A DNA stretch of 64,000 nucleotides, from NCBI RefSeq assembly GCF_016026235.1, contig NZ_CP065613.1. One strand, written 5' to 3'. The DNA comes from Escherichia coli. GTDB taxonomy: Bacteria; Pseudomonadota; Gammaproteobacteria; Enterobacterales; Enterobacteriaceae. Under the pieces are notes generated by a model that searched no databases, had not been told where the DNA came from, and saw nothing but the letters and a program-made list of their open reading frames with translations. The position numbers and the translations under genes were made by a program. Shown in pieces: positions 10,379 to 61,647 of the stretch (within the stretch, counting starts at the first letter, position 1; every line of letters starts with the position of its first letter).

Positions 10379-10681
10379 ATGACACCCTGGTTTCTTTACT
10401 TGATCCGTACCGCCGACAATAAGCTTTATACCGGGATCACCACGGATGTCGAACGCCGCTATCAGCAGCACCAAAGCGGCAAAGGGGCGAAAGCACTGCG
10501 CGGGAAAGGAGAACTGACGCTGGCGTTTTCTGCGCCAGTGGGCGACCGTTCGCTGGCACTACGGGCGGAATATCGCGTTAAGCAACTGACCAAACGGCAA
10601 AAAGAGCGTCTGGTAGCGGAAGGCGCAGGGTTTGCAGAACTGTTGAGCAGCCTGCAAACCCCGGAGATTAAAAGCGATTGA
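10379..10681 (+). CDS. yhbQ: GIY-YIG domain nuclease-like protein
   Basis: 100 aa; N-terminal [17 protein letters not shown] is a GIY-YIG motif. Confidence 0.85.
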
Positions 10682-11171
10682 AATGCTCGTGATACTCAAC
10701 CAGACCGGTTACGCCATTCAGCGCGTCATCCGCTAAACGATGTACCTGGAAGGCGCTTTCAGTGCCCGGCCAGCGGCAACGCAGATCGTGATGCGCCGCC
10801 AGTTCAAAGCCGAAACGACTGTACAGCGCCGGATCGCCCAGCGTCACCACTGCGGCATAGCCGAACTCATTAAGCGAATCGAGTCCTTCATAGACCAGTT
10901 GGCGTGCCAGCCCCTGTCCACGGTATTTTTCATCAACCGCCAACGGTGCCATGCCGACCCATTGCAGGTCTTCGCCCTGCACATCAACCGGACTAAATGC
11001 CACATAGCCAATGACCTGACCTTCGTCATCTGTCGCCACCAGTCCCAGCGTCAGAAAGCCATCTTCACGCAGATCGTGAACCAGCTTCGCTTCCGCATCA
11101 CTTTCGAATGAGCGACGCAGCAGGGCATCAATACCCGGCGCATCAATGGGAATTTCTACTCGAATTAGCAT
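10668..11171 (-). CDS. yhbS: GNAT family N-acetyltransferase
   Basis: 167 aa; acetyl-CoA-binding segment ([11 protein letters not shown]). Confidence 0.85.
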
Positions 11172-11689
11172 GGTTCACCTACCGATGTCTGTTTGGTTTC
11201 AGGCGCGGTTTTCATTCCCGCCTCAACAAAATCCGCCAGTTGCAGCAGCATCATGCGTAAGGCTTTCGGCATTTGCTCCAGTTCAATGGCGTCCATCAGG
11301 TTTTTCACATACAGCCCCAGCTCCGTATCGCCTTCAATCACCAGCCGACGCTGGAAGAAGAGCGTATCTGGATCTTGTTTACGCGCCGCAATCATCAGCA
11401 GATCGCTGGCGTCGGCACTAAAACTCACATCAGCTTGCGCGTTCTGGCTGACCACCAGTTTGCCATTCACCACCGAGGTAAACCATTGCAGGTCAATATC
11501 ACGCACATGAATACTTAACCAGCGGCCTTCAAGAAACTCCAGCTCGCCATCATCCAGCGCCTGACGGAATTGCCAGCTTAAGACCTGCTCAAGAACCTGG
11601 CGTTTTAGCGCAAATGGCGTCAGTTTTACCGGTACACTCAACAGAGATGGCCCCAAATGCACAATACGGGAACGCAGTTTATCCAACAC
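11165..11689 (-). CDS. ubiT: SCP2-domain lipid-binding accessory factor of O2-independent ubiquinone biosynthesis
   Basis: 174 aa if started at GTG (cac at 11687-11689); the ORF track offers an ATG 8 codons upstream. First gene of the unit that diverges from ubiU. Confidence 0.75.
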   Translation of the reverse strand: MLDKLRSRIVHLGPSLLSVPVKLTPFALKRQVLEQVLSWQFRQALDDGELEFLEGRWLSIHVRDIDLQWFTSVVNGKLVVSQNAQADVSFSADASDLLMIAARKQDPDTLFFQRRLVIEGDTELGLYVKNLMDAIELEQMPKALRMMLLQLADFVEAGMKTAPETKQTSVGEPC

Positions 11690-11897
11690 GAGTTTTACTC
11701 CCTGTTTCAACAATCATCCTATTTTGCCATATCAGAAAAATAACATAGCGGTATAAATCAACAATTCCATATGAAATTGCTGCTACCACCAATACAACTT
11801 TAACTGCCTTAAATCAAAAATTGTCGCAGCAAGGTTAACTAAAATCCCAGTTCGTTAACATTTTTGCGTTTTGATAGCGCAACCTTCAGGAAAAATT

Positions 11898-12893
11898 ATG
11901 GAGCTGCTCTGCCCTGCCGGAAATCTCCCGGCGCTTAAGGCGGCCATCGAAAACGGCGCAGATGCTGTTTATATCGGGCTAAAAGATGATACCAATGCCC
12001 GTCACTTCGCCGGCCTTAACTTTACCGAGAAAAAATTGCAGGAAGCGGTGAGTTTTGTCCATCAACATCGCCGCAAACTTCACATCGCGATTAACACTTT
12101 TGCGCATCCGGACGGTTACGCCCGTTGGCAGCGCGCCGTGGATATGGCGGCGCAGCTGGGTGCCGACGCGCTGATCCTCGCCGACCTCGCCATGCTGGAA
12201 TACGCCGCCGAGCGTTATCCGCATATTGAGCGCCACGTATCGGTGCAGGCTTCGGCGACCAATGAAGAGGCGATTAACTTTTATCATCGCCATTTTGACG
12301 TTGCCCGCGTGGTGCTGCCGCGCGTGTTGTCGATTCATCAGGTGAAACAGCTGGCACGGGTCACACCTGTACCACTGGAAGTGTTTGCTTTCGGCAGCCT
12401 GTGCATTATGTCGGAAGGCCGTTGCTATCTGTCGTCGTATCTGACGGGTGAGTCGCCTAACACCGTGGGCGCGTGTTCTCCGGCCCGTTTCGTGCGCTGG
12501 CAACAAACGCCGCAGGGGCTGGAATCCCGCCTGAACGAAGTGCTGATCGACCGTTATCAGGACGGCGAAAACGCAGGTTATCCGACGCTGTGTAAAGGGC
12601 GTTATCTGGTGGACGGCGAGCGCTATCACGCGCTGGAAGAACCAACCAGTCTCAATACCCTGGAACTGCTGCCGGAGTTAATGGCGGCGAATATTGCTTC
12701 GGTGAAAATTGAAGGCCGCCAGCGTAGCCCGGCGTATGTCAGCCAGGTGGCGAAAGTCTGGCGTCAGGCTATCGACCGTTGTAAGGCCGATCCGCAAAAC
12801 TTCATACCGCAAAGCGCGTGGATGGAGACGCTCGGGTCGATGTCCGAAGGCACGCAGACCACCCTTGGCGCGTATCACCGTAAATGGCAGTGA
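11898..12893 (+). CDS. ubiU: Peptidase U32 family protein UbiU (anaerobic ubiquinone hydroxylation)
   Basis: 331 aa from ATG 11898; U32 family with a conserved Cys cluster (CIMSEGRC...C...C). Confidence 0.85.
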   Translation: MELLCPAGNLPALKAAIENGADAVYIGLKDDTNARHFAGLNFTEKKLQEAVSFVHQHRRKLHIAINTFAHPDGYARWQRAVDMAAQLGADALILADLAMLEYAAERYPHIERHVSVQASATNEEAINFYHRHFDVARVVLPRVLSIHQVKQLARVTPVPLEVFAFGSLCIMSEGRCYLSSYLTGESPNTVGACSPARFVRWQQTPQGLESRLNEVLIDRYQDGENAGYPTLCKGRYLVDGERYHALEEPTSLNTLELLPELMAANIASVKIEGRQRSPAYVSQVAKVWRQAIDRCKADPQNFIPQSAWMETLGSMSEGTQTTLGAYHRKWQ

Positions 12894-12901
12894 GAAGAGC
12901 A

Positions 12902-13780
12902 ATGAAATATTCCTTAGGGCCAGTGCTGTGGTACTGGCCAAAAGAGACGCTGGAAGATTTTTATCAGCAGGCCGCCACCAGCAGCGCCGACGTGATTTAT
13001 CTTGGTGAAGCGGTATGCAGCAAGCGCCGGGCAACCAAAGTTGGCGACTGGCTGGAGATGGCAAAATCGCTCGCAGGAAGTGGCAAGCAGATTGTGCTCT
13101 CCACGCTGGCGCTGGTGCAGGCATCCTCTGAACTGGGCGAACTGAAACGCTATGTTGAGAACGGTGAGTTTCTGATTGAAGCCAGCGATCTCGGCGTGGT
13201 GAATATGTGCGCTGAACGCAAACTGCCGTTCGTCGCCGGGCACGCGCTGAACTGCTACAACGCGGTGACGCTGAAAATATTGCTCAAACAGAGCATGATG
13301 CGCTGGTGTATGCCGGTGGAGCTTTCCCGCGACTGGCTGGTGAATCTGCTTAATCAGTGCGATGAGCTGGGCATTCGCAACCAGTTTGAAGTGGAAGTCC
13401 TGAGCTACGGTCATCTACCGCTGGCCTACTCCGCTCGCTGCTTTACCGCGCGTTCGGAAGACCGCCCGAAAGATGAGTGTGAAACCTGCTGCATTAAGTA
13501 TCCGAACGGGCGCAACGTGCTGTCGCAGGAAAACCAACAAGTGTTTGTACTCAATGGCATTCAGACCATGAGCGGCTACGTTTACAACCTCGGTAACGAG
13601 CTGACATCCATGCAGGGATTGGTTGATGTGGTCCGCCTGTCACCGCAGGGTACTGACACTTTCGCGATGCTCGACGCCTTCCGCGCTAATGAAAATGGCG
13701 CTGCGCCACTATTGTTGACGGCAAACAGCGACTGTAACGGCTACTGGCGGCGGCTGGCAGGACTGGAGCTGCAAGCCTAA
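12902..13780 (+). CDS. ubiV: Peptidase U32 family protein UbiV (partner of UbiU)
   Basis: 292 aa from ATG 12902, starting 9 nt after the ubiU stop; Cys-rich C-terminal motif (CETCC). Confidence 0.85.
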   Translation: MKYSLGPVLWYWPKETLEDFYQQAATSSADVIYLGEAVCSKRRATKVGDWLEMAKSLAGSGKQIVLSTLALVQASSELGELKRYVENGEFLIEASDLGVVNMCAERKLPFVAGHALNCYNAVTLKILLKQSMMRWCMPVELSRDWLVNLLNQCDELGIRNQFEVEVLSYGHLPLAYSARCFTARSEDRPKDECETCCIKYPNGRNVLSQENQQVFVLNGIQTMSGYVYNLGNELTSMQGLVDVVRLSPQGTDTFAMLDAFRANENGAAPLLLTANSDCNGYWRRLAGLELQA

Positions 13781-13785
13781 GTAAA

Positions 13786-13905
13786 TATGCTCGTCATACT
13801 TCAAGTTGCATGTGCTGCATCTGCATTCGTTCACCCCAGTCACTTACTTATGTAAGCTCCTGGGGATTCACTCTCTTGTCGCCTTCCTGCAACTCGAATT
13901 ATTTA
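13786..13905. repeat. ERIC (IRU) element
   Basis: The core 13828-13871, read in reverse complement, is gtgaatccccaggagcttacataagtaagtgactggggtgaacg, which matches the ERIC core consensus with one mismatch. Outer boundaries are approximate. Confidence 0.6.
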
Positions 13906-13985
13906 GAGCACAGCTCACTTTGTTAACAACTTTAACTACTCTTTAATGCAGTATTAAAGATTAATCGGTAACAAAGTGAGCTGTT

Positions 13986-14993
13986 ATGACTGATAAAACC
14001 ATTGCGTTTTCGCTACTCGATCTGGCCCCCATTCCCGAAGGTTCTTCAGCGCGAGAAGCATTCTCCCACTCTCTCGATCTCGCCCGTCTGGCTGAAAAGC
14101 GCGGCTATCATCGCTACTGGCTGGCAGAACACCACAATATGACTGGCATTGCCAGTGCTGCCACGTCGGTATTGATTGGCTATCTGGCGGCGAATACCAC
14201 CACGCTGCATCTGGGGTCTGGCGGCGTGATGTTGCCTAACCACTCACCGTTGGTCATTGCCGAACAGTTCGGCACGCTCAATACACTCTATCCGGGGCGA
14301 ATCGATTTGGGGCTGGGTCGTGCGCCAGGTAGTGACCAACGGACAATGATGGCGCTGCGTCGCCATATGAGCGGCGATATTGATAATTTCCCCCGCGATG
14401 TCGCGGAGCTGGTGGACTGGTTTGACGCCCGCGATCCCAATCCGCATGTGCGCCCGGTACCAGGCTATGGCGAGAAAATCCCCGTGTGGTTGTTAGGCTC
14501 CAGCCTTTACAGCGCGCAACTGGCGGCGCAGCTTGGTCTGCCGTTCGCGTTTGCCTCACACTTCGCGCCGGATATGTTGTTCCAGGCGCTGCATCTTTAT
14601 CGCAGCAACTTCAAACCGTCGGCACGACTGGAAAAACCATACGCGATGGTGTGCATCAATATTATCGCCGCCGACAGCAACCGCGATGCTGAGTTTCTGT
14701 TTACCTCAATGCAGCAAGCCTTTGTGAAGTTGCGCCGTGGCGAAACCGGGCAACTGCCGCCACCGATTCAAAATATGGATCAGTTCTGGTCGCCGTCCGA
14801 ACAGTATGGTGTGCAGCAGGCGCTGAGTATGTCGTTGGTAGGTGATAAAGCGAAAGTGCGTCATGGCTTGCAGTCGATCCTGCGCGAAACCGACGCCGAT
14901 GAGATTATGGTCAACGGGCAGATTTTCGACCACCAGGCGCGGCTGCATTCGTTTGAGCTGGCGATGGATGTTAAGGAAGAGTTGTTGGGATAG
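13986..14993 (+). CDS. yhbW: Luciferase-like (FMN-dependent) monooxygenase family protein
   Basis: 335 aa in the position of K-12 yhbW; family assigned from memory of the K-12 annotation. Confidence 0.85.
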
Positions 14994-21706: not shown

Positions 21707-21906
21707 TGTAATATCCTTTCTCTTTCTTAGACAGTACCTTACGGCACTGGTGTTAATACCCGATCTTCTGCGCATCCTCGCGACTAATGACAACCCTAAC
21801 CCAGCTCTATGTGGGTAAAGCCTCTCATTAGCCGCGCGAACCTCTGCAACGGAAGATCATTCATAGCAACAATACATTAGTTTCCAGTGAATTGCTGCCG
21901 TCAGCT

Positions 21907-21936
21907 TGAAAAAAGGGGCCACTCAGGCCCCCTTTT
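21907..21936 (-). terminator. rpsO rho-independent terminator
   Basis: Hairpin aaggggcc/ggcccctt with a T-run on the minus strand, just downstream of rpsO. Confidence 0.6.
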
Positions 21937-21952: not shown

Positions 21953-22318
<366 letters not shown>

Positions 22319-23793: not shown

Positions 23794-23867
23794 GGCCTGA
23801 TAAGACGCGCCAGCGTCACATCAGGCAATCCATGCCGGATGCGGCGTAAACGCCTTATCCCGCATGG
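23794..23867. repeat. REP/BIME element
   Basis: ggcctgataagacgcgccagcgtcacatcaggc and gccggatgcggcgtaaacgccttatcccgcatg between infB and rbfA. Confidence 0.5.
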
Positions 23868-28545: not shown

Positions 28546-28751
28546 GCCCACCCCCAAGACATAAAAAAAGGGCCTAAAGCCCAGTTATTCTGTAGTCAGA
28601 TAACAAAAAACCCCGATAAATCGGGGCTTTATATAACTGAACCCTATAACCGCAACTGCGGTCTGGAGCACTTTCCAGAAGGATTTTTTCAAATCCCACT
28701 ACGAAGGTCGAAGTCTTCACAGTATATTTGAAAAAGGACTCTAAGGGAAAG

Positions 28752-28828
<77 letters not shown>

Positions 28829-31730: not shown

Positions 31731-31817
31731 TGGTACCGAGGACGGGACTTGAACCCGTAAGCCCTATTGGGCACTACCACCTCAAGGTAGCGTGTCTACC
31801 AATTCCACCACCTCGGC
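31731..31817 (-). tRNA. leuU: tRNA-Leu (anticodon GAG)
   Basis: The reverse complement reads GCCGAGGTGGTGGAATTGGTAGACACGCTACCTTGAGGTGGTAGTGCCCAATAGGGCTTACGGGTTCAAGTCCCGTCCTCGGTACCA, an 87-nt class II tRNA. Confidence 0.9.
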
Positions 31818-38374: not shown

Positions 38375-38621
38375 TTGTTATACCTCTTGAATATTCCTGA
38401 TGGGGCAAGTCTTCACCCACCCCGGCTGTTCGGCCTGCCCGGCATAACTCCTCACCGGGACCAGAAGCAAAAAAATACCGACCCAGGTACAAGTCCCAGG
38501 TCAGCTACAATTCACATTTTGATAGTCATTTTACCCTGAAGTTCCCGAAGGGTCATCGTTTACTTTATAGGGCGTTGCGCCGTAGTATGACGGCTCGATT
38601 CCAGGTTGTTAGCGCGAGATT

Positions 38622-61526: not shown

Positions 61527-61647
61527 CGTGCGGCCTGAAAAACAGTGCTGTGCCCTTGTAACTCATCATAATAATTTACGGCGCAGCCAAGATTTCCCTG
61601 GTGTTGGCGCAGTATTCGCGCACCCCGGTCTAGCCGGGGTCATTTTT
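61527..61647 (+). ncRNA. arcZ: Hfq-dependent small RNA ArcZ
   Basis: GTGCGGCCTGAAAAACAGTGCTGTGCCC...CACCCCGGTCTAGCCGGGGTCATTTTTT matches the ArcZ sequence as I remember it; its terminator overlaps the arcB stop on the opposite strand. Confidence 0.85.

Follow-up and report, generated by a model that had tools for sequence, protein, structure and literature searches.

The founding characterised system for the O2-independent branch of ubiquinone-8 (UQ8) biosynthesis is that of Escherichia coli K-12 MG1655, where it is encoded by ubiT (b3157), ubiU (b3158) and ubiV (b3159) (PMC6747719). In this strain, UbiU and UbiV form a heterodimer in which each subunit carries one [4Fe-4S] cluster, and both are needed for O2-independent hydroxylation (PMC6747719), with prephenate, and not O2, supplying the oxygen for all three hydroxylations (PMC10990095). 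The third protein, UbiT, is proposed to stand in, by means of its SCP2 domain, for the aerobic factor UbiJ (PMC6747719). Here, we describe the corresponding locus at positions 11165-13780 of a 64,000-nt stretch of E. coli DNA (contig NZ_CP065613.1 of assembly GCF_016026235.1), hereafter the window, in which the divergent genes yhbT and yhbU-yhbV are, almost certainly, the E. coli ubiT and ubiU-ubiV genes of this branch of the pathway.

In K-12, the genes are controlled by Fnr. Arias-Cartin et al. 2023 reported that Fnr activates the ubiUV promoter, ubiUVp, via a site named F1 and the proximal ubiT promoter via a second site, F2, the distal ubiT promoter being Fnr-independent and keeping UbiT present in air (PMC10470549). 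Mutating F1 abolishes the production of UbiV without O2, and mutating F2 removes only the anaerobic induction of UbiT (PMC10470549). In a survey of 1,566 ubiTUV loci across Pseudomonadota, 96% of those with this divergent architecture had a predicted FNR site between the genes (PMC11707229).

Two paralogues of UbiU and UbiV act on RNA. TrhP (YegQ), a prephenate-dependent tRNA U34 hydroxylase, combines a U32 domain with four-cysteine motifs like those of UbiU and UbiV (PMC6747719, PMC10990095). RlhA (YdcP), which published work connects with the O2-independent hydroxylation of RNA, has the same domain and comparable motifs. The chemistry of TrhP and RlhA is probably prephenate-dependent and O2-independent like that of UbiUV, but their substrate is RNA and not a prenylated quinone precursor. 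These paralogues are not known to need a heterodimer of the UbiU-UbiV type or an SCP2 partner. A much more distant comparison is offered by the U32 peptidase Mk0906 of Methanopyrus kandleri (PDB 5D88), which has a fold resembling that of triose-phosphate isomerase (TIM) barrels. When an AlphaFold2 model of UbiV (predicted local distance difference test score, 96.4) was used for a fold search, the matches were generic TIM barrels, 5D88 being the only U32 entry among them, with a TM-score of 0.46. No sequence relationship between 5D88 and UbiU or UbiV is detectable, and the structural likeness is no better than that to generic TIM barrels such as MetF.

The window is a part of the E. coli chromosome: E. 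coli chromosomes in which ubiT, ubiU and ubiV are annotated match it at 99.9%, and its 3-kb stretch 11000-14000 is matched over at least 80% of its length by 5,424 of the 5,426 complete E. coli genomes. The top match for this stretch, strain FDAARGOS_943 (99.9%), carries the annotated genes yhbS, ubiT, ubiU, ubiV and yhbW. On the minus strand, ubiT (yhbT; 11165-11689), a name that RefSeq also gives it, starts with GTG and encodes an SCP2-domain accessory factor of 174 residues. On the plus strand, ubiU (yhbU; 11898-12893) and ubiV (yhbV; 12902-13780) both start with ATG and encode the two U32-family [4Fe-4S] subunits of the O2-independent hydroxylase, of 331 and 292 residues, respectively. The window and K-12 have in common the gene order, orientation, gene lengths, start codons, the overlap between ubiT and the neighbouring yhbS, eight cysteine ligands and both Fnr sites. 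They differ by two changes in UbiU, four changes in UbiV and a 125-bp enterobacterial repetitive intergenic consensus (ERIC) element that follows ubiV only in the window.

The assignment of the three proteins is carried by curated equivalog models of NCBIfam, on which UbiT scores 153.4 bits (NF047962; cut-off 46.9, E 3e-45), UbiU 560 bits (NF047963; cut-off 440, E 1.6e-168) and UbiV 358.5 bits (NF047965; cut-off 275, E 2.9e-107); given these E-values, ubiT, ubiU and ubiV are real genes and not chance open reading frames. Pfam finds an SCP2 domain in UbiT (E 8.7e-20) and the Peptidase_U32 domain (PF01136) in UbiU (1.6e-67) and UbiV (2.9e-08), the latter two both over the gathering score. Compared with K-12 MG1655, UbiT is identical at 174 of 174 residues (100%), UbiU at 329 of 331 (99.4%; changes I190V and V303I) and UbiV at 288 of 292 (98.6%; changes E19D, G131S, A235T and P271L). 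None of the changes in UbiU and UbiV affects a cysteine ligand and, among those in UbiV, only G131S falls at a conserved position. The initial annotation of the window, made from the sequence alone, had already recognized the divergent yhbT and yhbU-yhbV genes as the anaerobic ubiquinone hydroxylation system, and both the equivalog scores and the near-identity to K-12 bear it out. RefSeq uses the gene name ubiV but calls the product a 'U32 family peptidase', because on this protein an older NCBIfam model, NF011991, scores higher (436 bits) than NF047965 (358 bits); the product name is a quirk of annotation and not a matter of biology.

The iron-sulfur ligands agree with this assignment residue by residue. 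Mutagenesis identified C169, C176, C193 and C232 of UbiU and C39, C180, C193 and C197 of UbiV as the [4Fe-4S] ligands (Pelosi et al. 2019, PMC6747719). In the window, cysteines stand at 169, 176, 193 and 232 of UbiU (CX6CX16CX38C) and at 39, 180, 193 and 197 of UbiV (CXnCX12CX3C), exactly the published positions, so that all eight published ligands are present. The motifs CIMSEGRC in UbiU and CETCC in UbiV, which the initial annotation had pointed out, correspond to residues 169-176 and 193-197, respectively. UbiV was further aligned with 63 full-length matches (29-49% identity) from a search of 1.84 billion cluster representatives, and all 64 aligned sequences are classed as UbiV by NCBIfam. 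C39, C180, C193 and C197 are invariant across this alignment, and C196, the non-ligand cysteine of the CETCC motif, is variable within the family. By this alignment and the NCBIfam classes, neither outcome that the initial annotation had named as refuting it, a lack of the four-cysteine clusters or a grouping with collagenase-type U32 peptidases, came about.

The longest open reading frames found mechanically begin farther upstream than the annotated genes, at TTG 11713 for ubiT, TTG 11871 for ubiU and ATG 12884 for ubiV. The annotated starts of UbiU and UbiV are nevertheless favoured, because the UbiU model aligns with residues 1-331 of 331 and the UbiV model from residue 2, as are those of ubiT and ubiU, because Shine-Dalgarno-like sequences precede the GTG of ubiT (GGGAG) and the ATG of ubiU (AGGA); the agreement of the RefSeq annotation of two genomes also speaks for the annotated starts. 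Between the ubiU stop codon and the ATG of ubiV, the sequence leaves a spacer of 8 nt (GAAGAGCA; 12894-12901, plus strand), where 9 nt had been counted before. The proximity of the two genes had been taken as a sign of co-translation. The close spacing stands, and we infer translational coupling across the 8-nt spacer; a more accurate description is that the genes of the two heterodimer subunits are co-transcribed and may be coupled in translation.

The divergent control region between ubiT and ubiU spans 208 bp with a GC content of 34%, and its limits, 11690-11897, are exactly those first given. It is identical to that of K-12 MG1655 at 208 of 208 positions, where approximately 3.3 differences would be expected at the divergence rate of the coding sequence. 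Each of the 5,424 matching E. coli genomes carries it at 99% identity or more, whereas over the entire 3-kb locus 4,340 genomes reach only 95-99%. Such a high identity, set against that of the coding DNA on either side, would fit a densely constrained regulatory region. The initial annotation had expected a site for an anaerobic regulator in this region, and the two published Fnr sites are indeed found there verbatim: F1 (TTGATTTAAGGCAG; 11804-11817, minus strand), for activation of the ubiUV promoter, and F2 (TTGATTTATACCGC; 11748-11761, minus strand), for that of ubiTp2, the proximal promoter of ubiT (PMC10470549). Because the 208-bp region is identical to that of K-12, the published promoter results for F1 and F2 carry over directly.

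The same work allows the transcription starts to be placed on the sequence of the window. F1 is said to lie '36 nt upstream of the start site' of ubiUVp, and the ubiT promoter starts were placed with the published distances of 33 nt and 19 nt (PMC10470549). On this basis, transcription would start near 11853 from ubiUVp, near 11714-11715 from ubiTp2 and near 11780-11781 from the constitutive ubiTp1. These distances, together with the sequence, point to candidate -10 hexamers for ubiUVp (TAAAAT; 11840-11845, plus strand) and ubiTp2 (CAAAAT; 11721-11726, minus strand). The centres of the Fnr sites would lie approximately 40-43 bp upstream of the starts (approximately 42 bp for F1, centred at 11810.5), in a class II-like geometry. 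A scan of 11100-14050 for sigma-70 promoters and terminators showed no excess over shuffled sequences (2 promoter-like sites versus 2.3 expected), and its sole match in the control region, at 11871-11899, was discarded for its disagreement with the published start site. The TTGAT half-site of F1 was also considered as the -35 element of ubiTp1 (TTGATT, with a 17-nt spacer and TATTGG); this idea found no support, as the published mutF1 swaps exactly those bases and leaves UbiT levels unchanged.

For the window, the formation of a heterodimer, the binding of Fe-S clusters, the requirement for anaerobic UQ8 synthesis and the use of prephenate are expected by analogy with the published K-12 proteins, to which its own are 98.6-100% identical, normal activity of the S131 variant of UbiV being assumed. 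As O2 falls, Fnr bound to F1 would switch on the ubiUV promoter and Fnr bound to F2 the proximal ubiT promoter, and the distal, constitutive ubiT promoter would keep UbiT, along with the co-transcribed YhbS, present in air too. The products of the ubiUV operon would assemble into the UbiU-UbiV heterodimer, with the [4Fe-4S] cluster of each subunit held by four cysteines, and the three O2-independent hydroxylations would draw their oxygen atoms from prephenate. The proposed role of UbiT is to substitute for UbiJ and, through its lipid-binding SCP2 domain, to handle the hydrophobic intermediates.

No finding speaks against this assignment, although three caveats accompany it. As palindromes, F1 and F2 are weak, each having one perfect TTGAT half-site and three mismatches to TTGAT-N4-ATCAA. 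A scan of the window for this motif, which had been suggested along with the initial annotation, did return both sites at three mismatches, but no convincing full palindrome: within 11690-11897 there was no match with two or fewer mismatches, and F1 and F2 were the only ones with three. The window contains many matches as good as these, with 299 found against approximately 240 expected from shuffles; the status of F1 and F2 therefore rests on the published experiments, as a motif scan alone cannot identify them. To our knowledge, the hydroxylase activity of UbiUV has so far not been reconstituted in vitro. Searches of PDB sequences with UbiU and UbiV found nothing, and there is no close relative with a solved structure. 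Finally, the UbiV of the window carries a private substitution, G131S, at a glycine conserved in approximately 93% of the family.

This substitution is the basis of the alternative that best survives. Codon 131 of ubiV (13292-13294, plus strand) reads AGC (Ser) in the window versus GGC (Gly) in K-12 and in the nearest genome. The A at 13292, and with it the allele, occurs in none of the 5,424 matching complete E. coli genomes, the best of which matches a 131-nt query (13230-13360) at 99.2%, equivalent to one mismatch. A 47-nt query centred on the substituted base likewise had no match, and not even an exact 28-nt word, in E. coli genomes. Position 131 is at least 90% conserved in the UbiV alignment. 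Among 68 family representatives, 63 have Gly there and the remaining five N, D, R or K, but never Ser. In the AlphaFold2 model, it belongs to the turn of two residues that links helix 121-129 to strand 132-136, and glycine is favoured at such a helix-to-strand turn position. The locus could then be intact but weakened, with G131S destabilising the turn and O2-independent ubiquinone synthesis being reduced or abolished, which would modify, and not replace, the identification as ubiT/ubiU-ubiV. We regard this as unlikely. The five of the 68 sequences with another residue (N, D, R or K) argue that Gly is not strictly required, the reading frame of ubiV is intact with a model score well over the cut-off, and surface turns often tolerate the replacement of Gly by Ser; alternatively, the source assembly could contain a base-calling error at this position. 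G131S may be neutral, mildly destabilising or such an error. The near-invariant Gly131 is a conserved position and not a published defining feature of the family, and Ser at this position leaves the membership in UbiV standing. If the weakening were real, G131S would be a natural loss-of-function allele, rendering the pathway hypomorphic or inactive, in a locus otherwise conserved universally in E. coli.

It is very improbable that the two U32 proteins belong with TrhP or RlhA as RNA hydroxylases and not with the quinone hydroxylases. These families have the U32 fold, the cysteine motifs and probably prephenate-dependent chemistry in common (PMC10990095), and the TrhP model NF011996 matches UbiU in part (2.1e-48). 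On this model, however, UbiU scores 165.3 bits and UbiV 19.9 bits, far under the cut-off of 534, and a ubiU-ubiV pair with a divergent SCP2 gene is the signature of ubiTUV (PMC6747719, PMC11707229). The published K-12 deletion data are also the opposite of what would be expected of proteins devoted only to RNA modification (cmo5U, ho5C). There is equally little room for the historical annotation of YhbU and YhbV as collagenase-type U32 peptidases with no role in quinone synthesis, which the Pfam Peptidase_U32 domain in both and the product name still listed for ubiV by RefSeq might recall, as the models that they match best over the full length are the UbiU and UbiV equivalogs, above the cut-offs, and as they are nearly identical to proteins shown by genetics and biochemistry to be Fe-S proteins required for anaerobic ubiquinone hydroxylation (PMC6747719, PMC10990095), the published genetics having already refuted a peptidase role in K-12.

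The ubiT/ubiU-ubiV genes are flanked by yhbS and yhbW. yhbS (hqbA; 10668-11171, minus strand) encodes a GNAT acetyltransferase, and the overlap of its start with the ubiT stop is 7 nt long (ATGCTAA). In K-12, it is co-transcribed with ubiT, as seen by reverse transcription PCR, and has no ubiquinone phenotype (PMC10470549). yhbS is accordingly a member of the ubiT transcription unit that lies outside the ubiquinone pathway. We take its product to be the Hfq-binding acetyltransferase HqbA.

On the other side, the ERIC element (13787-13911) is inserted 6 nt past the ubiV stop codon, and a sequence that we take to be that of the ERIC1R primer matches it exactly at 13850-13871. An ERIC element at this site is found in 1,422 of 5,426 E. 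coli genomes, and K-12 lacks it. Next to it, the two arms of a perfect 16-bp inverted repeat (13910-13925 and 13969-13984) flank a second hairpin, of 9 bp, and the repeat stops 1 nt short of the ATG of yhbW. The hairpin at 13910-13984, which has a predicted folding energy of -28.7 kcal/mol (z = -5.1) and lacks a U-tract, is shared by K-12 and conserved across E. coli, and as modelled would bury the likely ribosome-binding region of yhbW. An Rfam scan of 11000-14100 found no RNA family. One plasmid record of the E. coli collection also has a copy of ubiV, of the intergenic region between ubiT and ubiU and of the sequence upstream of yhbW, and a few genomes have two copies.

Elsewhere in the window, Rfam identifies the small RNA SraG (21765-21936), the S15 leader (22166-22280), naRNA4 (23794-23864), the rimP leader (28563-28663), two tRNAs (28755-28828 and 31734-31817), the greA leader (38470-38591) and ArcZ (61528-61635), all of which one would expect in this region of the E. 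coli chromosome.

The UbiTUV locus of E. coli, the regulator site included, is fully described in the literature, and the window brings no new biology to it; what the literature lacks are three minor observations, G131S, the ERIC element and the yhbW hairpin. The importance of the locus is that of the pathway itself, which enables facultative anaerobes to make ubiquinone across the whole O2 range with an unusual organic oxygen donor, prephenate, and which contributes to gut colonisation.

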